From: an uncultured virus (IMG/VR IMGVR_UViG_3300047548_000808)
Taxonomy: Duplodnaviria; Heunggongvirae; Uroviricota; Caudoviricetes
Virus record (IMG/VR): IMGVR_UViG_3300047548_000808
DNA length: 20,000 bases
Reading direction: 5' to 3' (one strand)
How positions within the stretch are numbered: the stretch's first letter is position 1; every line of letters starts with the position of its first letter. Below the pieces are notes generated by a model. It saw nothing but the letters and a program-made list of their open reading frames with translations. It was not told the DNA's origin and searched no databases. A program made the position numbers and the translations under genes. Positions 3,035 to 20,000 of this stretch are shown here, one piece after another.

Positions 3035-3568
3035 ATGTCAGAACTAACAGAATCGCTGAAAGAAGATCCAATATACGAAAAGACCAAAACAATATATAAA
3101 AGCGTTATTACAATGTATCAAGAAGAGAAGATTGTAGCCGAGATTGATCTTCTGCATAGTACTCGTAAGTCACGTAAATTAGCCGTAAATAAAGTTAATC
3201 CCAAGACACTACAGGAAGCTATTCTTATTGAAATGTCTAATAGATCTAGACTCATTGAGCTTAGGTCCATGTGCTCTAGAAATCACCAGCTAATCTCTTC
3301 CGCTAGAGAAGTTCTAAAGAAGCATATTCTATGTACGTATCCAACATTGCTTAAAGCTGAATATGGTAGCACTATTGGAGAACGTAATAACGCAGTTGAT
3401 AGCCTACTGTCAAGGTTTTTTAATCTGCAATCTCGTATTGAAGGGACTATCAACATGATTGATCTGGCTGTAAAGGATATTGATCAATCTTCGTATCAGT
3501 TCCGTAATCTTATTGATATTATGAAGCTAGTTCTTGGTGGCGGAAGCTCAAACCTAGAAACAATGTGA
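3035..3568 (+). CDS. Putative UvsY-like recombination mediator (all-helical)
   Basis: AAGGA RBS; C-terminal MIDLAVKDIDQSSYQFRNLIDIMKL..GG resembles the T4 UvsY C-terminal pattern; adjacent to a UvsW-like helicase. Confidence 0.5.
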   Translation: MSELTESLKEDPIYEKTKTIYKSVITMYQEEKIVAEIDLLHSTRKSRKLAVNKVNPKTLQEAILIEMSNRSRLIELRSMCSRNHQLISSAREVLKKHILCTYPTLLKAEYGSTIGERNNAVDSLLSRFFNLQSRIEGTINMIDLAVKDIDQSSYQFRNLIDIMKLVLGGGSSNLETM

Positions 3569-3575
3569 GCACAGC

Positions 3576-5174
3576 ATGAGCCAAGAATCTGTAATTAAAA
3601 TCTATAAGGCTGAAGCTTATTATCTACCAATAGCTAGTACACCACCTGAACTAGTAGCTGAACTAGAAGACGAATTTACATACTCGTTCTACAAAGAATC
3701 AGCTTGCGCTAGGTGCCCGTATTTAGAGGACCGTCCTTCTGAGAACTGTGATGCATGCGAATCCTTCCTTGGGCAGCGAGCTACTGGGGGACGAAAGACT
3801 GTAAAAGAAAAGCATTTCTTGAAAGTTCCTAGAGGTGGTCTGAAAAAGCTTACTAATGTTCTCAAGCATCTAGGCATGACTGATAGAGCCAAGTGGTTTG
3901 ATCGTATGCCTAAACCTGCGGAAATGTCACGCAGGATTAAACTTGCTGCGGACGTAAAGCTAAGAGATTATCAAACTCCAGCTATACTAGATCTAGTTTC
4001 TGCATCGGAAGGGGTATTAAAGGCACCCCCTAGGAGCGGTAAAAGTCTCGTCGCCGCAGCAGTCATTTCTAGACTAAATCAGAAAACACTCATTCTAGCC
4101 TCTCAAAACGAATGGCTCTGTCAGTTCAGAGAAACGTTTATTGGGTCAGAAACCGTAAAGGCTATGACTACGTGTAAGCCATCCCAGATTGGATTTCCAA
4201 AGACCGTAGAAGACTTTGATAAGTACGATATATGTCTGTGTACACTTTCCAAGTTCAAATCTGCTAATGGCAAGAAACTTCTTGAGCAAATCAAGGATAA
4301 GTTTCCAGTAGTAGTTATTGACGAAGTACACTATGTTCCAGCAGACGGGTGTGCGCGTGTAATTGCCAATCTAAATGCTAGATACATATTTGGCCTAACT
4401 GGTTCGCCAGAGCGCAAAAATACAGCAGAATATCAGATTGTAGAAGACCTAGTTGGCCCAATCATACATGAAGTTAAGATGGATAGAGCTAGGCCACAAG
4501 TAGAACTTCTGCCTATGCCCTCAGGCAAGAAGAACGAATTCCAGATTAAGGGCCATGGTCCATACGCATTTACTTCATTGGTGTCAAAGTTAGAGGCTTC
4601 AACCGTAAGAAAAATAGCTATATGTGACAAAGCTATTCAGCTAGCCAAGTCTGGTCACATGGTTCTGATTCCATTGACCAGAGTAAATTCTATTCTTGAG
4701 TACACTAGGTATATAAACGAAAAAGTAGACCGCCCAAGATACGCGCTTCCTTTCTATGGAAAGATAAAGAAGGAAGACCGTATGAAGGTTATTGATGCAG
4801 CTAGAAACTATAAGTGTAAGGTTCTAGTCGGAAACATAGCCTTGCTATCAGTTGGTCTTAATATACCTAGAGCCTCGGCAATTATTGAGTGTGGAATCAA
4901 TAGTAACTCTCCAGCGTGCAAGCAGCGCTTAGCTCGCGTGCTAACACCAATGGAGGATAAACCTACACCGCTATTCGTATTTACTATGGACGACTGCGAC
5001 ATAATGCGCAAGTGCCGTAGAACAGAGTGGTGGAACACGATTACCCCAACATTCAAACCAGTAGTTAGTTCTGAAACGAAAAAAGCTCTTAACGCTTATT
5101 TTGCAGCTTCGTCTAGTTCTGTTAAAGCTAGAAAAGGCGCATACGCACATATTAATATAAATGAGGACTTATGA
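3576..5174 (+). CDS. Superfamily 2 DExH helicase (UvsW/XPB-like) with N-terminal Cys4 cluster
   Basis: Q motif LRDYQ, Walker A APPRSGKS, Walker B VVIDEVH, motif III LTGSP, motif V SVGLNIP, motif VI KQRLARV; CARC...CDAC near the N-terminus. Confidence 0.9.
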   Translation: MSQESVIKIYKAEAYYLPIASTPPELVAELEDEFTYSFYKESACARCPYLEDRPSENCDACESFLGQRATGGRKTVKEKHFLKVPRGGLKKLTNVLKHLGMTDRAKWFDRMPKPAEMSRRIKLAADVKLRDYQTPAILDLVSASEGVLKAPPRSGKSLVAAAVISRLNQKTLILASQNEWLCQFRETFIGSETVKAMTTCKPSQIGFPKTVEDFDKYDICLCTLSKFKSANGKKLLEQIKDKFPVVVIDEVHYVPADGCARVIANLNARYIFGLTGSPERKNTAEYQIVEDLVGPIIHEVKMDRARPQVELLPMPSGKKNEFQIKGHGPYAFTSLVSKLEASTVRKIAICDKAIQLAKSGHMVLIPLTRVNSILEYTRYINEKVDRPRYALPFYGKIKKEDRMKVIDAARNYKCKVLVGNIALLSVGLNIPRASAIIECGINSNSPACKQRLARVLTPMEDKPTPLFVFTMDDCDIMRKCRRTEWWNTITPTFKPVVSSETKKALNAYFAASSSSVKARKGAYAHININEDL

Positions 5175-5764
5175 CTGTACCAAAGATTATAAAACTACCT
5201 AGTCGAAATCTGTTTCTGGGGCGTGGATGTGATATTCCAAACCATATATGGACTTCGCCAAAAACTAAGCTAGATACGTGTGACTTTGCTACGGACGAGA
5301 AAGACGGATTGAACCAGACAGTATACACTGCAGTGCAGCAGGATGCATCGTTTGATGCGTTCGTGCAGGATCCGTCAGAACCTAGAATCTATGGCATCTG
5401 CTCGATGCCTAACGACTCAGTAGCTAGCGTTATGGCTGCGTACATGACTTCGGTATTTTTACAGCAGTCTGCCCCAAATCAACTAGCATACTGGAACAAG
5501 ATAGTATGGAGTGGATTTGACAAGAACGTATTTACATGCGGATGTAGCTTCTTAGTCATCTCAAGTATTTCTCCAAACACATCAGTAGCTAGGCTAGAGT
5601 ATATACAGGAAGTCATTGATCGTTACGCCGGCCGCATTCCCATTTTAGTAGTTGGAACTGGGTTTGATCCTATAACTATGTTTTCTACCAAGTTGTTTCG
5701 GAAGCCTACGGATATATTCTTCCACTCAACTTCGCTAGTAAAACGACGAACTGAGGTCATGTGA
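5171..5764 (+). CDS. Hypothetical protein, possibly a degenerate DnaC/IstB-like helicase loader
   Basis: GAGGA RBS, ATGA overlap; FLVISSI...LEYIQEVIDRY...PILVV follows the DnaC-like Walker B-to-sensor layout without catalytic residues; directly upstream of DnaB. Confidence 0.4.
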   Translation: MTVPKIIKLPSRNLFLGRGCDIPNHIWTSPKTKLDTCDFATDEKDGLNQTVYTAVQQDASFDAFVQDPSEPRIYGICSMPNDSVASVMAAYMTSVFLQQSAPNQLAYWNKIVWSGFDKNVFTCGCSFLVISSISPNTSVARLEYIQEVIDRYAGRIPILVVGTGFDPITMFSTKLFRKPTDIFFHSTSLVKRRTEVM

Positions 5765-5768
5765 CCGT

Positions 5769-7169
5769 ATGGCAAAGATATTTTCTCCACGAGCTGAGGC
5801 CCAAGCTATCAGAGCACTTTGCGCGAAAGACCCTAAGATTTCAGGTTTAATGCTAGGCAACCTGAATCAGACGTTCTTTCACAGCAAAGCTGCAGTAGAA
5901 ATATATAAACGCATTCAAAGGTTTAATGAACGCAAGGGCACAGTACCTGCTATCTCAGTGGTACGTGAAGACCTAGGTTTATCTGATGACGCTAAAGCAT
6001 TCATTGATTCTGAAGTAAAAGCACCGAGATCCTCAGAAGATGCTGAACAGCTTATCGGAGTTCTAGATAAATATCGTAGAACTCGTGTTATGTACAGAAT
6101 GTGCCGTGAGGTTCTAAACGATCTAACTGGTAATTCTGTAGATATTGATACTTTACAAGAATTTGTAATCAATAAACTTACTGAAATTCAAACCAGACGC
6201 ACCACGGATGCCGATGTTATACACCTCGGCAAGGATGGAAACGCACTGGAGAAGATTCATAGTATTCTGTTTGACGAAGGAACTGAGCAGGTTATTCCAA
6301 CAGGATTCAGAGACTTTGACACAGTAAACGGTGGTTTCTTTAGAGGAAGTCTACAGGCTATTGGTGCTAATACTGGTGGTGGTAAAAGTCTGCTTACTAA
6401 CCAGTTATGCATTAATCAAGCCAAACTAGGGTACAAGATTGTCCTGGTTCCGCTTGAAATGTCATTAGACCAAATGCTGTCTAGAACTATGTCATCCACT
6501 ACTGGATACAATAGTATTGACATCTTCTTGAAAAGGTTGGCTACAGGAGAAAAAGAAGACGCAATGAAGAAAATGCGTCGAATGAATCGTGAGATTGAAG
6601 GCAGAGGTGGACGTTATACTGTATTCAAGCCACGAGAGGATATGACCATTGAGCAGTTACTTGCTTCTGTTCATTCCTACAACGCAGACGTTATCTATAT
6701 TGATTATTTGAACCTACTAGCCGGTGTTTCTGATTCAGAAGACTCCTGGCGTAAACTTGGTAATGCTGCTCGACACGCCAAGATCTATGCAGAGAACCAT
6801 AACAAAGTTATCGTGCTACTGACTCAGGTTAACGACGAAGGTCAAGTGCGGTATTCAAAGGCTGTTGTAGAACATTGTAATGGTTTCTGGACCTTTGTTA
6901 CTACAAAGGAATCCCGCGAAGCTGGATACATGAACATTGTTCCAATCAAGTCTCGTAATCAAGTTCCTGATCCATTCACTCTAAAAGTAGACTTTGCTAA
7001 AATGCAGGTTACTGACTTGAACGACGCAGATCGTTCAAAAATGAATAAAGACCATGCCAGCAAACAGATCGACGTTAGTGGAAACAAAGACGGCGAGCGT
7101 TTCCGTAAAAAGCGCACTCAAGTAACTGATCGTCCTAAACGCGATCAAGCTGACCTAACTGGAGTTTAA
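5769..7169 (+). CDS. dnaB: Replicative DnaB-like (SF4) helicase
   Basis: IPTGFRDFD, Walker A GANTGGGKS, LEMS, IYIDYLNLL, LLTQVN, KSR arginine finger; helical N-terminal domain. Confidence 0.92.
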   Translation: MAKIFSPRAEAQAIRALCAKDPKISGLMLGNLNQTFFHSKAAVEIYKRIQRFNERKGTVPAISVVREDLGLSDDAKAFIDSEVKAPRSSEDAEQLIGVLDKYRRTRVMYRMCREVLNDLTGNSVDIDTLQEFVINKLTEIQTRRTTDADVIHLGKDGNALEKIHSILFDEGTEQVIPTGFRDFDTVNGGFFRGSLQAIGANTGGGKSLLTNQLCINQAKLGYKIVLVPLEMSLDQMLSRTMSSTTGYNSIDIFLKRLATGEKEDAMKKMRRMNREIEGRGGRYTVFKPREDMTIEQLLASVHSYNADVIYIDYLNLLAGVSDSEDSWRKLGNAARHAKIYAENHNKVIVLLTQVNDEGQVRYSKAVVEHCNGFWTFVTTKESREAGYMNIVPIKSRNQVPDPFTLKVDFAKMQVTDLNDADRSKMNKDHASKQIDVSGNKDGERFRKKRTQVTDRPKRDQADLTGV

Positions 7170-7779: not shown

Positions 7780-8107
7780 GGACTTAACTGAGTTCGTTTT
7801 AACGTATGTAGCGCCGAACCAGATGGCGCTATTTAACGGTATTGAGGACGCAGCAGTCATATTAAAAGATACCCTAGGCGACGACCCCCGCCTGGGGGCT
7901 TTTTCATTAACGGCCGAAAAGTATTTGACTTTCGGAGTTAAAGCTAGACTTGCATCTGAGGTATCAAGGCTTCTAGATCTAACTGAAGTCGAGCGTGATC
8001 TGTTTCTACTACAAGTAGTATCGAAAGACTTCTCCGTTGACATGACTTCAGAAGCTATAAATGCTATGCTAACAAAGATAGCCAAGAAAGGCGGATCTAA
8101 TGGCTAG
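7442..8107 (+). CDS. Hypothetical protein (small terminase candidate by position only)
   Basis: AAGGA at 7429-7433 lies 8 nt before ATG 7442; the ORF fills the otherwise empty 7780-8099 gap and overlaps the terminase start; true start uncertain. Confidence 0.6.
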   Translation: MKSLNLPMAVVSPSLAKALSEEYNKKQRPKLSRQQVLEEQSLREAQNHPFLNFLETLEEEPKKQKLQVKQKKLQLKISPQPLPPKPAPSNKYLLDRSSSLSKQLPSLVNQKTKDLTEFVLTYVAPNQMALFNGIEDAAVILKDTLGDDPRLGAFSLTAEKYLTFGVKARLASEVSRLLDLTEVERDLFLLQVVSKDFSVDMTSEAINAMLTKIAKKGGSNG

Positions 8108-11100
8108 TTTAATTAAGCCTAGTTGCATGAAGTGTAGCAAGTATATTGCTTGCAGAGATCCATTAAAGGGGCCAAAACACTCATGCAAGTCTTTTGTTAG
8201 ACTAAAAGAGATAGGATCTTTTGAAGATCTGTACGCATCTATTTCTATGCTTCCGCAGGGAGTCGAAGACCCAGACATTGCACTTGAAAAAGAAACCTCT
8301 GGTATAAAGATACGGGATCTAGTTGACGCTACTCCAGGTATTGCTAAAACAAAGCGAGTTTTAGATGGGGTAAAAATAGCAACGCCAGAAGAAGTTAAAG
8401 GCGGAGTAAACGATGTGGAAGGTGACTTCATTTGGCAAGCAATGCAGTCTTCCTACGATCCGTTTACTAACTCAGTGCGGGACATCAAGATTGACGACCG
8501 AGCACTAAAGCTATCAACAAACTATTATCATTTCTGTACTAAGATTGCAGGGTCCGCTATCAAAGCACCATTTTCTAGGCAGCTATATGTAGCGATGATA
8601 CTGCTAGGAGAATACTGTCCAAGATGTACGGATGAAAAATGGCTAGATATTACTAACGTTCCAGTAGACATGGAATCTAAGGACTTAGTTAAGAAGGTAG
8701 TTCTTCTAGACAATGGAGTATGTCCTAAGTGCTCTGCCACAAAATCAGGATTGATTCTTGGTGGAGAGATGAAAGACTACAATGAGCTTGCTATTGTTCA
8801 GGGCCAGCGTTGCGTTGTTGGAGCTACTCGATTACAGACTAGGATAGGATTCAAGACCTTTACTGATCTTGAGGAAATTCACGCTGACTCCAGCGGCTCC
8901 ACTGGATTCGTAGAATATAAGGGTCCAGACCTAGTTGACTACGATGGAAGTTTTGTGAGGCCATCATACTTCTATAGATCTGGAAAAACTAAAACTCTAA
9001 AGCTAACTACTAGCATAGGCCAGGAGCTTACTGGAACTCCAGAACATCCGTTGTGGACTAAACACGGTTGGAAAAAACTATCCGAGCTAAAAGTTGGTGA
9101 TGAACTAGAACTTCATATAGGACAAGATGCTTGGAGCACAGACGAGTTCTCGCTAGAAGGAATGGCTGACTCCATTATCCTGAGTGAACATCATACTAGG
9201 CATCAACAATCAGCTAGTACACTAACTCCCAAAATAGCTGGTCTTATTGGGTTCTTAGTATCTGAAGGCAGTTCCTACGTAGTTGATGACGTTCTAAAAT
9301 CAACCAGGATACATAACAATGATATAAATGTTATTAACTATTGCAAGGAAGCCATACTCACGATATTCCCTTCGGCTACGCTACAGTATAGAGACAATAC
9401 TTTATTTATAGGAGAAATGCATACAAGACTTTTCCTTAATAAGCTAATGGATAACCGTCTTATAGTAGATAGAAAATCTGCTGGACGAGTAGTACCAAGT
9501 TGCATAAAAGTATCACCAAAGCCTGTAGTGCAAGAATTTCTTAGGTGTATGTTTGAAGGAGACGGAGGGCTTAACGGTAATAGCGTAGAGTACACCTCAA
9601 TCAGTAAGACTCTAGTGGCAGATTTACACGCTATGCTATTAAATATTGGTATACCCTGTAGAGTAAGAAGCAAGATGGCTTGGGCCAGTAACGGTAGTTC
9701 TGAGCAAGTAAGTAAGCCCTGTTATATACTAGAAGTGTCTGGTTCATACGCAGTATACAAGTTCAAGGAGATCATAGGATTTAAGAGCCAAAGAAAGAAC
9801 GCACTTCTTAGTAAAAAAGCATCTCTATACAACAACTATGTACGAGAAACAGAACCCTCTTGGTATGGTTACCTTAGTTCAGTTGATAGTTCTAGAGTTA
9901 TTGCCATGTACGAAGAAATAAATTCGGAGCTTAGGGCTGGTAGAGTAAAGTACTATAACGGGGGGCGCAGTTCCCAGGTAAGTCTACGTAGTGCATTCCA
10001 ACTACGGGTTAGAACAACTACAGGGCTTGTCACAAAGTATAATGCTGCCTTACTTTGTAATTCTGTACTAAATGCTTCAGATATAGTAGTTCACCTGTCT
10101 GACTCAGTACTAAAAAAGCTTAGGTATATTAAGAGACTATCGGAAGACAGAAGTACTATACACATTACAGTTAAGTCAGTGTCTAATGAGGAAAAACAAG
10201 AAACATACGATGTACATATACCAGGTACACATAGGTTCATGGCTGAGGGCCTTCTAAATCATAACAGCGGAAAATCGGCTTTCTCTTCAACGCTTTCTGC
10301 ATATCTACTTCATAGATACATGAAAGCGCCAAGAATGTCCGATATCTGTCGAGGCATTCAGGAGTTCACGCCACTAACTGCTACTTTCGTAGGACTTACA
10401 GCAGCGCGAGCAATCAAGAACTTGTGGAATCCATTCATGTCTATCGTGAACGGAAGTACATGGTTCACTGAGTATTTTGAAATGCTACGTGATTATGGAC
10501 GTAGGTATGACAAAGAACTATACAAACGTGCAGGTCTTTATCTACGTATTTTTCATAGAAATCTAGACCTATACCCTGCTCCTCCGCTTAAGCGCACTCT
10601 ACGTGGCGATACTCGTTTCTTGGGTGCAACTGACGAACTTAGCTTCTTCAACTTTAATCCCAATAAGAATGCTGATGGAGACGACGATGACGAGGAAAAG
10701 GAACATGCTGATGGCGAGGAAGTTCAGCAGTCCCTATCGAACTCTCTAACTACGGTAAGAACAGAAGTTTTGCACCTGTATAAAAAGGGAATTAATACCA
10801 TTCCTACTGGTTATAATCTTAGTATGTCCTCCCCGTTTTCGGAGAACGATACTTTATGCAGACTAGAACGGGATAGCCATAACGAAGATTCTCTTACTTT
10901 TGGTATCAGGCTGCCTACTTGGGAAGTTAATCCATTATACCAAAGAAATCACCCCATCATCGTAGAAGCCTATCGTAGAAATACAGTAAAAGCAGAACGT
11001 GACTTCGGAGCTAATCCTCCCCAGATCACGAGCGCTCTGTATCAGCCTGGAACTATTGAAATGCTGTTTACTCCAGGTAGACCTAATTCACATAGACTAC

Positions 11101-11822
11101 TATACCTAGATCATGTAAAGTATACCCGTGGAAAGTCAGTTCACGTAACACCTAAAGACGCATATCAACCAGCAATTATGACACTGGATGCAGGTCTAGT
11201 TAATAACGCATTTGCTATGGTAGTAGCTCACCGTAGGGATACGACAATGGAAGTTGATCTAGTTATTGAACTAGTTCCACAGCCAGGAAAACAGGTTGAC
11301 TTTCCATTCTTATATGATAATATAATTCTACCTATTATTAAGGATATGAACGTAGTTCTAGTATCAGCAGATAGATGGAATAGTATTAATATACTTCAGC
11401 AGATAGAAAAGGACGTGGAAGGATGTAAGGTTAGTCAAAAGACTCTACAATACAAGGACTTTACTCATTTTAGTGCATCAGTGTACGCAGGAGAGGTTAA
11501 ACTACCTGCATTAGAGATGCCTATGGATAGAATACTAGTAGTTAGAGACTTTAAGAAAGAACTACTAAATGCTCCTATATCGCACCTAGCACTACAGATG
11601 ACTACAGTAAAGGACACGGGCGTTGCAGTTGTAAAGGGTGATGGTTACACTGACGACATGTTTAGGGCACTAGTTCTTAATCATCAACAGATGTTTTCTA
11701 CCAAGCATAAAACACACATGAATAGGGCTAGAATTAAAAGCTCAAGTGCAAAGAAAACGGATAAGTCTCGCGCATTTGTTATATCAGCGCCTAGGTCTAT
11801 ATATAGCAGGGGTGGAATGTAG
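8100..11822 (+). CDS. terL: Terminase large subunit, intein-containing precursor (about 755 aa after splicing)
   Basis: Adenine-binding PFSRQ; Walker A GQR|SGKS restored by removing the intein; Walker B GATDE; coupling motif SSP; RNase H-like nuclease residues TLDAG, SADRWNS, TDDMFRA; upstream of portal and protease genes. Confidence 0.9.
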   Translation: MASLIKPSCMKCSKYIACRDPLKGPKHSCKSFVRLKEIGSFEDLYASISMLPQGVEDPDIALEKETSGIKIRDLVDATPGIAKTKRVLDGVKIATPEEVKGGVNDVEGDFIWQAMQSSYDPFTNSVRDIKIDDRALKLSTNYYHFCTKIAGSAIKAPFSRQLYVAMILLGEYCPRCTDEKWLDITNVPVDMESKDLVKKVVLLDNGVCPKCSATKSGLILGGEMKDYNELAIVQGQRCVVGATRLQTRIGFKTFTDLEEIHADSSGSTGFVEYKGPDLVDYDGSFVRPSYFYRSGKTKTLKLTTSIGQELTGTPEHPLWTKHGWKKLSELKVGDELELHIGQDAWSTDEFSLEGMADSIILSEHHTRHQQSASTLTPKIAGLIGFLVSEGSSYVVDDVLKSTRIHNNDINVINYCKEAILTIFPSATLQYRDNTLFIGEMHTRLFLNKLMDNRLIVDRKSAGRVVPSCIKVSPKPVVQEFLRCMFEGDGGLNGNSVEYTSISKTLVADLHAMLLNIGIPCRVRSKMAWASNGSSEQVSKPCYILEVSGSYAVYKFKEIIGFKSQRKNALLSKKASLYNNYVRETEPSWYGYLSSVDSSRVIAMYEEINSELRAGRVKYYNGGRSSQVSLRSAFQLRVRTTTGLVTKYNAALLCNSVLNASDIVVHLSDSVLKKLRYIKRLSEDRSTIHITVKSVSNEEKQETYDVHIPGTHRFMAEGLLNHNSGKSAFSSTLSAYLLHRYMKAPRMSDICRGIQEFTPLTATFVGLTAARAIKNLWNPFMSIVNGSTWFTEYFEMLRDYGRRYDKELYKRAGLYLRIFHRNLDLYPAPPLKRTLRGDTRFLGATDELSFFNFNPNKNADGDDDDEEKEHADGEEVQQSLSNSLTTVRTEVLHLYKKGINTIPTGYNLSMSSPFSENDTLCRLERDSHNEDSLTFGIRLPTWEVNPLYQRNHPIIVEAYRRNTVKAERDFGANPPQITSALYQPGTIEMLFTPGRPNSHRLLYLDHVKYTRGKSVHVTPKDAYQPAIMTLDAGLVNNAFAMVVAHRRDTTMEVDLVIELVPQPGKQVDFPFLYDNIILPIIKDMNVVLVSADRWNSINILQQIEKDVEGCKVSQKTLQYKDFTHFSASVYAGEVKLPALEMPMDRILVVRDFKKELLNAPISHLALQMTTVKDTGVAVVKGDGYTDDMFRALVLNHQQMFSTKHKTHMNRARIKSSSAKKTDKSRAFVISAPRSIYSRGGM
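8811..10265 (+). mobile_element. Full-length intein with LAGLIDADG homing endonuclease (485 aa) in TerL
   Basis: Starts CVVGAT; block B LTGTPEHPLW; LAGLIDADG blocks LIGFLVSEGS and FLRCMFEGDGG; block F TYDVHIPGTHRF; ends LNHN followed by Ser+1. Confidence 0.95.
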
Positions 11823-16261: not shown

Positions 16262-16680
16262 TTAGTGCTCTTGATAAAAAACTAGTGCTAGAATCGTTAG
16301 CTCTTAGTGTGGTTAGCGGTGTATATAAAGCTTCCAACATATCTAAGCCATCTCTTAATACGTATACTAAGGGCGTTCCTTTTGTATACGGATTTAAACC
16401 AGAGACTGCTCTGGTTTCAAAAGCTCAATACGAAAAATCTATTAAGGCTGTACCTCTCCAGAAGGTAGATCTTGAGATTCAGGAAATTTCTATAGGATCT
16501 ACTCCAGGTTCCCTTAGGACCGTAGCCGAGTCTTATAAGCTTGTATCCGTATCCGTTCATCTGGTATCATCTACTGACTATCTACGCAAAAACGAAAAGG
16601 CAAAGGTAGAAAACTTCCTAGTAGAAATTATAGTATGCCCACAGGCGGGAATGCTTTCTGCTAGACTAAGTAAGGATTAA
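16258..16680 (+). CDS. Hypothetical protein
   Basis: GAGG RBS, ATGA overlap; 140 aa. Confidence 0.75.
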   Translation: MISALDKKLVLESLALSVVSGVYKASNISKPSLNTYTKGVPFVYGFKPETALVSKAQYEKSIKAVPLQKVDLEIQEISIGSTPGSLRTVAESYKLVSVSVHLVSSTDYLRKNEKAKVENFLVEIIVCPQAGMLSARLSKD

Positions 16681-16682
16681 TT

Positions 16683-16970
16683 ATGTCACCACTACAGCTA
16701 GCACAAAAACTATCTAGTACAAAGCAAGATACGCTAGGCATACACAGTATAGCTATTACATCGTCATCTGATACAGGATGTGTATTCCTGGTTTCCTTTA
16801 ATCCTGGTGTAAGCTCTGCAGTCTTTCTTACACGAGTAGCTGACCAGTTCCCTGAGTACAATGCTGCACTGTCCAAGGAAGAGTGCCTTACTGTTGATAA
16901 CATAAGCATAACTCCTATATCATCAGCACCAGGAAGATGTTACTTTAGTGTATCCTACGTAGGTGCTTAA
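16683..16970 (+). CDS. Hypothetical protein
   Basis: AAGGA RBS; 95 aa; ends just before a terminator hairpin. Confidence 0.7.
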   Translation: MSPLQLAQKLSSTKQDTLGIHSIAITSSSDTGCVFLVSFNPGVSSAVFLTRVADQFPEYNAALSKEECLTVDNISITPISSAPGRCYFSVSYVGA

Positions 16971-16971
16971 T

Positions 16972-16981
16972 ACTGTTAATG
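16972..16981 (+). promoter_or_regulatory. Candidate phage promoter motif ACTGTTAATG
   Basis: Identical to 1456-1465; overlaps the left arm of the hairpin upstream of the polymerase. Confidence 0.45.
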
Positions 16982-17014
16982 GCTAGTAGTTCTAATCGGC
17001 TACTAGCCATTTTT
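16978..17014 (+). terminator. Intrinsic terminator closing the packaging/head block
   Basis: 12-bp stem AATGGCTAGTAG / CTACTAGCCATT, 10-nt loop, followed by a T run. Confidence 0.75.
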
Positions 17015-17024
17015 GCATATAAGT

Positions 17025-19478
17025 ATGACTACTTTTCAAGATATGTTTGATTCAGGTTTTGGAAATCTGAAAGACTTCAGAATAGTGAAGGATGGATATA
17101 AACTATATCCAAAGGTGCATCCATCCTGGAAGACTGCTGACCGTAAACTTCTAGTTGTACTAGAGACTGTAGACCGTGTAGACATATTTGAGAACACCTT
17201 TCTATCTGAGTCCGTTGATCCAGATAGGGGTAACTATAAAAACTCTATGCGTAACATAATTCCAAAGATTATGGACGCTGCCTGGAATCAGGTTAACGTA
17301 TACAGAGGTAAGGAAGAGAATCCAGTTGAAAACCCGTTCTCTCTGGCTCTAGTTAATTTCAATGCTACGAAGACAAGAGATCTTGAAACTTCAGAACAGG
17401 CTTCGTACAATGTAATTTTTGCCAAACGCATACTAGCTTTGATAGAGAGGCTGAAGCCAACGCACATTTTATTCAGTGGTGCTACTGCGTACACTAGTAC
17501 GCTAAAACTTATTGATCCATCGTTAGTTGTTTCGTATTCTGCAGTAAAACGTGGATGGGTTGAGCGAGTAAAGCATAATGATCTAGAGTTTAAGGTAACA
17601 CATACTCTTGACCTTGAGCCTTTATACAATCCTAATACCAAGAAGACAGAAGTATCAGATGACGAAGAAGACCTAGCAGATAAGTTTGCTCTAGCTGATC
17701 TTTTTTACTTTGTATCCAGGAACGTGGCTAACTTGCTAAACGGCAAGCACATGTATTCGGTGAAACGGGTAGAAATTAAGCCAGTATATGTGGATACGAT
17801 GGAAAAGGTTGATAAGCTTTTCGACCTTCTTCAGTCAAGCAAAACTATAGCATTAGACTGCGAAACTAACAATCTAGAAACGTATCATAATAAGATAAAT
17901 GTTATTCAGTTCGCAGTAAGCAAAGACGTTGGATACGTACTTCCAATTCAGCACGTAAAATCGCCGTTCTCTTTAGAAGACCAAGAAATTATTCTAAAAA
18001 GACTGCGTAAGTTCATGTATGACTGGGATCCAAAAAATCGCAAGGATTTCATTGTACTAAATGGAAAGTTTGATTTCCGTGTTATACGCGGTTTGTTGAG
18101 CATACCAGTCATATACCACAGAATCTGGGAATTAAACTACGCAGAGTCCCTGATAGACGAAAATGTAAGTCTTCTGTCTAAGTCTAGTGCTAAGGTTCGT
18201 GCTGGAACTGACTACGTGCTTACCTCGTACCAAGGGCTACGTAATCTGTGCGTTCTATACGAAAACGACTTCTACTATAAGGCCGTCCTATCCAAGGAAG
18301 AACGTAATACTCTAGGATCTATTGCGCCGGATGATCCTGAAGCTTTGCTGTACGAGGCCGCTGACGTACAACTACCGTTTGCGATTGCAGAACAGCAGCA
18401 ACTCCTAGCTAATAATATCAGGTATCGTCCTAGCTTTCAGTCTGAAGAACTAGTATCCTACGGGAAAGCTTTCAGGTTGAATCTGCTACACCAGATGAGT
18501 AATACCGTTCATGGTATTTCTACTATGGAGCAGAACGGTTCCCCATTAGACGTTAAGTACCTAAAAAGCTTGCTAGGTAAGGACTCTCCATTAAGAAAAC
18601 AACTACGAGAGTATCGTGAAGAACTGGAAGCTACCCCTGCTGTACGCAAGGTAGAAGAGCTGATAGCTGGAGAGAGTGGAAGAAAAGTATCTGGTATTTT
18701 TGGTGGTAAGCTGGTACAGAAACTATTCAAGTTAAGTAAGAAAGATCACCAGGAGTATTTGTTCTTTGATGTTCTTGGACTAGAACCTGTACGGCTGACA
18801 AAAACAGGTAAGCGTGCAGTTGACAAAGCATTCATTGCCAACTACGAGCATGATCATCCAGAAGTAAAAATCTTTGGTTTATATTCCAAAGTATTCAAGA
18901 TTCTATCTACCTATGTAGTTGGATGGAACAAGAAGATGGATAGCAGCCTTGATTCTGCTGCTGACTTCTGCCTACGTGCGGCTTTTGGTATCGTTACAAC
19001 CCGACGACTTTGTTCTTTCAATCCTAACCTACAGCAGATTCCTAGTCGTGGTCCGCTAGCCAAGATCGTTAAACGCGCATTCGCTGCACCTAAGGGTTTT
19101 CTGAATATTGCATATGACCTATCAGCTCATGAAGTGCGGATGTGGGCTAATCAAAGTGGGGATAATGCATTGGCTGGAGCGTTCCGTGCAGGACAGGAGC
19201 TTAGACAGAAATGGATATTAACTCCAACTGATGAAGTTAAAAAGGAACTTAAACAGAAGGGTGATATTCATATTCAAAACTACTATCGTTTCCATAAAGT
19301 ATGGCTAGACCGGGCCACTCAGGGGGACGCACGCGACGGAGTCAAGAGAGTTGTATTTGGCGCTATCTACGGAAAGTCCGCAGCTACACTAGGTAAAGAT
19401 CTGAAATTAGAAAAACTAGATAGCCTCTCAGCTAAGCGTCGAGAACTCATGAAACAAATTCGCGCTTTCAAAAGTTAA
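17025..19478 (+). CDS. polA: Family A DNA polymerase, N-terminal part (UDG-like domain, 3'-5' exonuclease, thumb, motifs A and B; motif C absent)
   Basis: ExoI IALDCET, ExoII NGKFD, ExoIII YEAAD; TTRRLCSFNPNLQQIP; motif A YDLSAHEVR; GDIH; motif B RDGVKRVVFGAIYG; stop 34 codons later. ATG 17025 preferred over TTG 17013, which sits in the terminator T tract. Confidence 0.9.
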   Translation: MTTFQDMFDSGFGNLKDFRIVKDGYKLYPKVHPSWKTADRKLLVVLETVDRVDIFENTFLSESVDPDRGNYKNSMRNIIPKIMDAAWNQVNVYRGKEENPVENPFSLALVNFNATKTRDLETSEQASYNVIFAKRILALIERLKPTHILFSGATAYTSTLKLIDPSLVVSYSAVKRGWVERVKHNDLEFKVTHTLDLEPLYNPNTKKTEVSDDEEDLADKFALADLFYFVSRNVANLLNGKHMYSVKRVEIKPVYVDTMEKVDKLFDLLQSSKTIALDCETNNLETYHNKINVIQFAVSKDVGYVLPIQHVKSPFSLEDQEIILKRLRKFMYDWDPKNRKDFIVLNGKFDFRVIRGLLSIPVIYHRIWELNYAESLIDENVSLLSKSSAKVRAGTDYVLTSYQGLRNLCVLYENDFYYKAVLSKEERNTLGSIAPDDPEALLYEAADVQLPFAIAEQQQLLANNIRYRPSFQSEELVSYGKAFRLNLLHQMSNTVHGISTMEQNGSPLDVKYLKSLLGKDSPLRKQLREYREELEATPAVRKVEELIAGESGRKVSGIFGGKLVQKLFKLSKKDHQEYLFFDVLGLEPVRLTKTGKRAVDKAFIANYEHDHPEVKIFGLYSKVFKILSTYVVGWNKKMDSSLDSAADFCLRAAFGIVTTRRLCSFNPNLQQIPSRGPLAKIVKRAFAAPKGFLNIAYDLSAHEVRMWANQSGDNALAGAFRAGQELRQKWILTPTDEVKKELKQKGDIHIQNYYRFHKVWLDRATQGDARDGVKRVVFGAIYGKSAATLGKDLKLEKLDSLSAKRRELMKQIRAFKS

Positions 19479-19502
19479 AAAGTGTGCTTTTATCTATCTG
19501 TT

Positions 19503-19539
19503 AAGGGTCTGTGTACGTTAGCTGTACACAGACCCTTTT
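19503..19539 (+). terminator. Intrinsic terminator after the truncated polymerase
   Basis: Perfect 14-bp stem AAGGGTCTGTGTAC / GTACACAGACCCTT, 7-nt loop, ending in TTTT. Confidence 0.8.
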
Positions 19540-19559
19540 CCTACTTACCGGAGCCAAAA

Positions 19560-20000
19560 ATGAATACTTCTCTAAAGAACCTATTTACCATTCGTGATGG
19601 TCTTGTCCATATTTATGGGCAACCTATTAGTCGGCATGAAACCTATCCTTGGCTGTACTGTGCCAATGATATCCATAGAGCACTAGTTAAGCGCGCAGTA
19701 CGCATGGCAGAAAAGAGTGGAAAGGACGTAGAAAGAGCTAAAGCCAAAGCTATGAGGAGGCGTCCTGGAGATTGGATTTCAGATAAAAACAAGACTCCTG
19801 CAATATGGGCTAAACATTTTAATAAAGCTGGTAAAACTGCTTTTAAAGAGTACACAGATTCAATGCCGGATGTATCCGGCATTGAAAAACCAGAGTGTCC
19901 TAGGCTAGCAGCAATTCAAACCAAGATTGGTAGATATGGTGGTACATTCTTGTGTGAGCAGCTTATAACGGAGTACTGTGCATGGACTTCGGCTAAGTTT
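19560..20000 (+). CDS. KilA-N domain DNA-binding protein (partial; not in the ORF track)
   Basis: GGAG RBS, ATG 19560, open to the window end (147 codons). My translation MNTSLKNLF...LYCANDIHRA...RPGDW...GRYGGTFLCEQLITEYCAWTSAKF matches the KilA-N patterns Y.LNDLHRA, P..W and GGTY...L...YA.W.S..F. Confidence 0.85.
   Translation, partial: MNTSLKNLFTIRDGLVHIYGQPISRHETYPWLYCANDIHRALVKRAVRMAEKSGKDVERAKAKAMRRRPGDWISDKNKTPAIWAKHFNKAGKTAFKEYTDSMPDVSGIEKPECPRLAAIQTKIGRYGGTFLCEQLITEYCAWTSAKF

Follow-up and report, generated by a model that had tools for sequence, protein, structure and literature searches.

The gene for a family A DNA polymerase (PolA) was found to be divided between two open reading frames (ORFs) in an uncultured tailed phage of the Caudoviricetes, represented by a stretch of 20,000 nucleotides from IMG/VR record IMGVR_UViG_3300047548_000808 (hereafter the window). 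The PolA motifs are not all on one polypeptide but are distributed over two ORFs, with a gene for a 308-amino acid KilA-N protein between them. We consider, with a probability of about 0.8, that these ORFs belong to a jumbo phage of the phiRSL1/PaBG type and encode a family A polymerase that is split by nature, working as a two-chain enzyme.

The N half (17025-19478, plus strand; 817 amino acids; TAA stop at 19476-19478) comprises an N-terminal region, a 3'-5' exonuclease, the thumb, palm motif A, fingers motif B and a 34-residue amphipathic tail helix. Pfam searches matched the 3'-5' exonuclease family (PF01612) to residues 254-454 (E 2.9e-06) and DNA_pol_A (PF00476) to residues 570-797 (E 7.6e-27, 94.7 bits), the latter match covering only positions 32-234 of the 381 in the profile. 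The exonuclease motifs Exo I (DxE; D278/E280, nt 17856), Exo II (NxxxD; N346/D350, nt 18060) and Exo III (YxxxD; Y443/D447, nt 18351) precede a TGR-type block (residue 658), after which come motif A (D698 and E703, nt 19113) and motif B (R770, K774, F778 and Y782-G783, with G783 ending at nt 19373), all of these being invariant among 21 homologous split N halves. The ORF stops 34 codons past the YG of motif B (817 - 783); an earlier reading of this DNA made from its letters alone (the sequence-only reading) had noted this stop together with the intact exonuclease, A and B motifs, and the positions it gave were confirmed. The tail that follows the YG (residues 784-817; 19371-19475, plus strand) corresponds to helix 1 of a family-specific hairpin at the fingertip.

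The same reading had predicted that motif C would be encoded by a separate gene of 150-250 amino acids, and such a gene was located, although at 293 amino acids its product is somewhat larger than had been guessed. An exact pattern from the window end matched IMG/VR contig IMGVR_UViG_3300047548_000297 (L004), the first 127 bases of which are an exact overlap with the last 127 of the window. The C half lies at 597/606-1478 of this contig (293 amino acids, or approximately 290 from the second ATG at 606, the start used by close relatives), directly after the KilA-N gene, the stop of which is overlapped by the C-half start (ORF overlap of 8-17 nt). Both the NSPIQG block and the His-Asp pair of motif C, which includes the second catalytic aspartate, are present in its product, and this matches PF00476 positions 235-355, the match of the N half having ended at 234. 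When placed on Taq polymerase (3po4_A), the profile of the N half extends to residue 390 and that of the C half from residue 395 onward, leaving an interval which we take to be the loop after the O/O1 helices at the fingertip. All matches of both halves in Pfam and the PDB were to family A and none to family B. Judged from these profile alignments, the two halves are complementary, with nothing missing between them. Downstream of the C half, L004 encodes an ORF without a family match and then a DnaG-type primase, an order that resembles the polA, two hypothetical ORFs and primase of the phages phiRSL1, BcepSauron and Motura.

The window ends within the inserted gene at an assembly-graph break, and an erroneous stop, or a false link to L004, was accordingly considered; on the following evidence there is only a minimal chance of either. 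The stop is at an equivalent position in eleven relatives (45-92% identity), and a 36,048-nt contig of run X1, produced by an independent assembler, spans 18800-20000 with 0 differences and runs beyond, though X1 may be the source sample itself. The window-L004 junction is bridged by protein P0197 (308 amino acids, KilA-N), which is identical letter for letter to the window part and the L004 part combined. P0197 sits on a 113,030-nt contig and the C half P0003 shows the same longest-contig value, from which we infer that both lie on one contig. The break itself falls directly after a two-base variant at 19872-19873, with L004 beginning at 19874, and since this variant is present in other samples (X3 and X4) and adjoins the break, the contig end looks like an assembly-graph bubble rather than a real terminus. 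The variable bases form the centre of a perfect 13+13-nt palindrome within the KilA-N gene (19859-19886), in which the central GT reads AC in the X3 and X4 contigs, as if the palindrome had been flipped; these runs hold part of the KilA-N gene only, on a 1,780-nt contig, and are uninformative on the polymerase junction. Several other searches returned nothing further: a megablast of window positions 16500-20000 against deposited phages, an exact-pattern search for the stop/hairpin junction in IMG/VR and a first metagenome scan with a pattern from the 127-nt overlap gave no match, and a related-locus search with the single C-half sequence returned the L004 contig only.

The closest named relatives of this polymerase, those of phiRSL1, BcepSauron and Motura (36-40% identity), are each encoded by one ORF of 1050-1056 amino acids, and the PolA of Erwinia phage phB78 is likewise a single ORF. 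In alignments with the named relatives, the N tail and C head fall in an insert of approximately 50 residues after motif B that is present in phiRSL1 and BcepSauron and absent in Motura. In 35 whole homologues, motif B was separated from the conserved block that comes after it by 16 residues (seven proteins), 50-75 residues (27 proteins) or 183 residues (one protein). An AlphaFold model of the BcepSauron PolA (36-row alignment, mean predicted local distance difference test (pLDDT) score 89.6) placed two helices in this region, at 755-773 and 779-801, joined by a 5-residue turn (774-778). The N-half tail aligns to the first of these helices, and because N-half residue 811 aligns to BcepSauron 771 and C-half residue 6 to BcepSauron 776, on either side of the turn, the gene has been cut in the turn with one helix left on each chain. 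According to this model, therefore, the break sits in the turn between two fingers helices of the whole relatives.

This location also bears on whether a split intein joins the halves after translation, the arrangement of gene half, free-standing ORF and gene half being that of the fractured genes described in excerpts of Dassa et al. 2009 (PMC2677866), and inteins being known in this polymerase family (L063; P0172, P0176 and P0178). Pfam detected no intein domain in the N or C half, in keeping with the absence of an N-intein half noted previously, and the 34-residue tail and the head of approximately 34-37 residues both correspond in full to the hairpin helices, so that intein halves could not be fitted in. 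Such protein splicing has next to no probability here.

Co-folding of N-half residues 470-817 with the C half gave an interface score (ipSAE) of 0.83 in three of three runs, compared with 0.01 for the best of three controls. The runs shared at least 94% of contacts, with partner pLDDT at or above 84. Confident contacts were predicted between the motif A strand of the N half (691-697) and the motif C strands of the C half (146-152), and the interface included the N tail (793-815) and C head (11-32) with contacts at a spacing of 3-4 residues. A coiled-coil zipper at the tip of the fingers had been proposed previously; the idea fits both the helix-turn-helix of whole relatives and the co-fold interface, the binding itself being a prediction.

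Several points weigh against a working two-chain enzyme. The halves resemble many solved single-chain PolA structures, so the co-fold result shows likeness rather than binding, and since alignments made for this analysis were used, the calibration of the ipSAE mark, which was attained by 116 of 157 solved complexes and by 2 of 215 mismatched pairs, holds only roughly. The binding of the two chains is accordingly a prediction, and their joint activity is putative. The window-L004 link is drawn from assemblies and not from single reads, and the 66.8-kb L004 record is estimated to be 28% complete, so that sole-replicase status cannot be claimed. Motif C reads His-Asp-Ala (L004 1018-1029) instead of the usual His-Asp-Glu; the same HDA form was found family-wide in phiRSL1/PaBG-type PolA proteins, split or single-chain, including those of cultured phages. 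Expression of the N half might be uncoupled from that of the C half by the strong hairpin that precedes the inserted gene. Lastly, Pfam found no nuclease domain in the KilA-N protein of the window, and a homing endonuclease identity is unsupported for it.

The split was found to be widely conserved. Searches with the C half retrieved 74 stand-alone proteins of 161-513 amino acids (most 275-315) at 35-100% identity, on contigs of up to 178 kb, and R95, R96, N99, Q103, G104, H143 and D144 were invariant in an alignment of 41 of them. A further 21 N halves end at the same hairpin, with lengths in relatives of 743-835 amino acids; together with that of the window, these 22 proteins end 33-47 residues past motif B. 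Lengths of 752-832 amino acids were found for all 12 of the nearest N-half homologues (51% identity or more across residues 420-817). The question raised at the outset, whether related phages break at the same site, is thus answered in the affirmative by the 21 N halves and 74 C halves.

These data are also relevant to the possibility that the gene is dead, the N half being kept as an exonuclease-only or DNA-binding protein whilst another polymerase replicates the genome. The window and L004 cover only part of the genome, as noted above, and the C half alone scores below the Pfam cut-off for PF00476 (19.3 versus 34.3 bits). Against this, every catalytic residue is kept in both halves across 35-100% identity, the C half remains beside replication genes, and no other PolA piece was found in the 66.8-kb L004 record. 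Furthermore, the 12 nearest relatives in the clade are all split, and since a decaying gene would not be expected to persist throughout a 12-member clade, decay is unlikely.

The C-half alignment was additionally used to fetch 76 IMG/VR loci, 72 of which show both halves (three others are cut by contig ends and one is without a match). The polymerase is a single ORF in 61 of the 72, is split at the hairpin in six (L006, L008, L024, L026, L050 and L073), near motif A in one (L033) and near the exonuclease/polymerase boundary in four (L041, L065, L066 and L075, with L065 and L066 near-copies). A FastTree phylogeny was inferred from 89 N-region sequences (P0001 and P0078-P0165), leaving out P0077, which is identical to the window, and P0166 onward, which are too distant; four rows cut elsewhere were unscored. 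On this tree the window falls in a starred clade of 12 sequences, all split, and the hairpin split needs seven changes, a parsimony count that does not separate fission from re-fusion and is also compatible with gene recombination. An IQ-TREE analysis of 54 rows, from which 35 had been dropped after the first tree was seen (near-copies, long branches and the four cut elsewhere), likewise gave seven changes, with at least six forced by starred branches. Forcing all split rows into one clade cost 657 log-likelihood units (p-AU 1.3e-87), and a single clade was therefore rejected. These phylogenies suggest that the hairpin cut has recurred about seven times in the relatives.

Between the N half and the inserted gene lies a hairpin with a 15-bp stem (19503-19517 paired with 19523-19537, plus strand) and a 5-nt loop, followed by a short T run. 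Its predicted folding energy is -29.5 kcal/mol (z -4.59), and none of 200 shuffles folded as well in ViennaRNA. The sequence-only reading had called it a 14-bp terminator hairpin; the hairpin stands, with a stem of 15 bp, and the terminator is a putative one, which a consensus terminator scan did not list. In its place between the two genes the hairpin may serve either to terminate transcription or to stabilise the RNA. The ribosome-binding site of the latter, GGAG at 19550-19553 (plus strand), was read from the sequence 6 nt ahead of the ATG at 19560. The KilA-N gene itself (19560-20000 in the window, plus strand, being the first 147 of 308 codons) ends at L004 613, equivalent to window position 20486. 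The 146-amino acid piece in the window is below the KilA-N cut-off (E 0.0094), and the full 308-amino acid protein passes it (26.1 versus 23.8 bits), as expected from the prior description of an unrelated KilA-N gene with its own ribosome-binding site. KilA-N was matched by nine of nine homologues of the inserted protein; these share 62-100% identity and many invariant residues, and on this comparison the gene is a maintained one. An AlphaFold model of the protein (mean pLDDT 48, 9-row alignment) had too low a quality to be compared with known folds, and the 150 C-terminal residues of the protein have no family assignment.

Introns are known to target phage polymerase genes, and we considered whether the KilA-N ORF lies in a group I or other self-splicing intron, the splicing of which would restore one frame; this point is discussed for OM43 phages in excerpts of the source describing them (PMC10580990), and the N-half and KilA-N ORFs of the window do share a reading frame with a single TAA separating them, both other frames closing soon after the stop as had been stated before. 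The arrangement nevertheless leaves no room for an intron core, as non-coding sequence amounts to 81 nt on the 5' flank of the inserted ORF and is lacking on the 3' flank, where the ORFs overlap by 8-17 nt. No Rfam family was matched at E ≤ 1 around the junction in the window and L004 (two chance-level matches occurred elsewhere in the window), nor did any Rfam match in 11 split relatives attain the gathering score. Conserved amphipathic helices form the tail and the head and have aligned counterparts in whole relatives, and in L024 and L073 the halves abut, so that there is no room for an intron there. A 151-nt contig from RNA library X18, representing the same N half/KilA-N arrangement in another sample, links the end of the N half to the start of the KilA-N gene through a diverged spacer of 69 letters and shows no splicing, a weak indication given possible DNA carry-over. 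An intron is very unlikely. A further reading, in which translation continues through the TAA into the in-frame KilA-N ORF, was also rejected: the spacer has 69 letters in X18 versus 67, and because its length differs, the shared frame is probably due to chance.

The content of the gap between the halves ranged from nothing to approximately 2.1 kb, with a gap of 2.75 kb or more in L081. The window carries one KilA-N gene, L006 a 337-amino acid ORF without a family match, L008 four ORFs, L026 a reverse-strand DUF7487 ORF (3326-4507, minus strand) and L050 two small ORFs; Pfam gave nothing useful on the inserted ORFs of L006, L008 and L050. There is no inserted ORF in L024, where stop and start overlap by 4 nt, or in L073, with a 1-nt spacer. 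In L081, with a C half 86% identical, the gap contains a DUF559 endonuclease-like ORF, a 189-amino acid KilA-N ORF (41% identical to the KilA-N protein of the window) and a KilA-N-like protein with a restriction-endonuclease-like domain, and no N half was found within the 2.75 kb upstream. The two DUF559/restriction-endonuclease-like ORFs of this locus lie at 3-1142 and 2009-2752, and the fusion of one of them to a KilA-N-like N terminus makes it a plausible candidate for a homing-endonuclease architecture. The region upstream of the L081 KilA-N ORF aligned unconvincingly to the hairpin region of the window, and a conserved cassette of hairpin plus ORF was dropped.

Other insertions were observed in the polymerase genes of relatives. 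DUF7487 ORFs occur in two different polA cuts, at the hairpin of L026 and in the motif A region of L033 (4544-5665, plus strand), which suggests that DUF7487 marks a mobile gene family. L063 harbours a 457-amino acid in-frame intein with a LAGLIDADG domain (4630-6000) at or adjoining the same fingertip site. In-frame inserts of approximately 185 amino acids near motif A, with HNH_3 and AP2 matches and no intein match, are present in L017 (5209-5757) and L024 (5120-5689), and also in L039 and L089; in these four the polymerase chain itself appears to house an endonuclease domain. A further cut site lies inside motif B, where the N parts P0151 and P0158 run as far as VVFG plus a small number of unrelated residues, and M-VLYGKSA begins the C parts P0036, P0040, P0043 and P0053; this could reflect an intron or endonuclease insertion in the conserved motif.

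The two-chain enzyme could thus be envisaged as follows. Chain 1 (817 amino acids) would supply the exonuclease, thumb, motif A strand and motif B helix, and chain 2 (293 amino acids), encoded approximately 1 kb downstream and past the window end, would complete the fingers and add the motif C hairpin, which bears the second catalytic aspartate. Translation of chain 2 would probably be coupled to that of the inserted gene, as is suggested by the overlap of its ATG with the stop of that gene. The chains would then assemble non-covalently, the tail and head helices re-forming the hairpin as an intermolecular two-helix coil and the palm being rebuilt by pairing of the chain 1 motif A strand with the chain 2 motif C strands. 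The cut itself may have arisen through insertion of selfish or mobile ORFs, here that of the KilA-N protein, into a structurally tolerant loop. More speculatively, and in our estimate doubtful, the fingertip hairpin may be a ready-made clasp through which the enzyme withstands the cut, its turn having been opened at least six separate times and serving as a slot where mobile genes come and go, in which case the two-chain form may alter the enzyme, for example through looser nucleotide selection, or tie its assembly to expression of the inserted gene. If so, the split may loosen nucleotide selection at the fingertip by analogy with Pfu polymerase, in which an engineered fingertip split had this effect (PMC3061061, in excerpt).

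The remainder of the window comprises genes for the replication and morphogenesis of a large phage. All of its main ORFs are on the plus strand, and their products include thymidylate synthase, DHFR, two helicases, a DnaB-like helicase, a large terminase, a portal protein and a head protease. The large terminase ORF (8100-11822) encodes 1240 amino acids, of which the terminase match covers residues 683-1214; its N-terminal part has a LAGLIDADG_3 domain and a weak Intein_splicing match, and the protein probably carries an intein. Inteins in the terminases of related phages were reported in the PaBG paper (PMC7412058), where "split" refers to tree statistics and no split polymerase is described. 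Just upstream of the N half, at 16978-17011, a further hairpin was read from the sequence, with a perfect 12-bp stem and a 10-nt loop followed by TTTTT, and the N-half gene is hence flanked on both sides by strong hairpins.

Family A polymerases are textbook single-chain enzymes. The two catalytic aspartates are here encoded on different proteins, the cut running through the catalytic domain, and no description of this PolA cut site was found in open-access papers and preprints. The excerpted text of a 2023 survey (PMC10201439) reports the exonuclease/polymerase domain split only, as a first for family A. We regard the present case as belonging to a known kind of system, the split phage polymerase, with a cut site and a lineage that are new for it; it is distinguished by a PolA active site divided between chains, a pre-existing helical hairpin and repeated cutting in uncultured jumbo phages. 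The whole enzymes, abutting halves, halves with cargo and intein at or near the same site constitute a natural series, usable for studying how an essential enzyme tolerates invasion by mobile genes and how helical clasps function in split enzymes, and the cut sites offer naturally validated split points for the engineering of Pol I-type polymerases.

Other divided replication enzymes have been described, here cited from excerpts of the respective papers. The family B polymerase of PhiKZ consists of DNAP-N and DNAP-C in a stable 1:1 complex (PMC13648687), likewise a two-polypeptide replicase of a jumbo phage, but of another polymerase family and phage lineage. The OM43 phages MEP401 and MEP402, a different phage group from that of the window, encode a split DNA polymerase for which the authors left an intron open (PMC10580990). 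The exonuclease/polymerase-split PolA of T7-like cyanophages such as S-SBP1 is produced from two genes and predicted to reassemble (Czernecki et al. 2023, PMC10201439). In that enzyme whole domains are parted from each other, and a cut near the same boundary is present in L041, L065, L066 and L075, whereas here the cut passes through the polymerase domain and places motifs A and B on one chain and motif C on the other. The PolA proteins of phiRSL1, BcepSauron and Motura have the same domain order, HDA motif C and neighbouring primase, but are single-chain.

In the nrdA-a/mobE/nrdA-b "genes in pieces" of Aeromonas phage Aeh1, an active site is formed by two chains with terminal tails that aid assembly (Crona et al. 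2011, PMC3045599, in excerpt). As in Aeh1, an essential enzyme gene is here interrupted by a free-standing ORF, with no sign of RNA or protein splicing. The Aeh1 tails came with the insertion, whereas both helices pre-exist in uncut relatives of the present polymerase, and, unlike mobE, the ORF in the window shows KilA-N only, other domains being carried by the relatives L081 (DUF559/restriction-endonuclease-like) and L026 and L033 (DUF7487).

The nearest parallel in architecture is provided by the family B polymerase gp43 of T4-like phages, which, in the work of Petrov et al. as described in PMC3061061 and PMC2988022, is cut in the hypervariable tip between two antiparallel fingers helices, with gaps of 2 bp to 3 kb between the ORFs that sometimes contain mobile endonuclease genes, and the halves of which, in phage 25, co-purify and are active. 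As with gp43, the PolA cut lies in the turn between two fingers helices and the intercistronic content is variable. Unlike gp43, the enzyme belongs to family A, with an unrelated fingers fold, and the cut is in a lineage-specific helical insert after motif B. By this analogy, as known here from sequence and structure prediction, the split is the PolA counterpart of the gp43 split fingertip.

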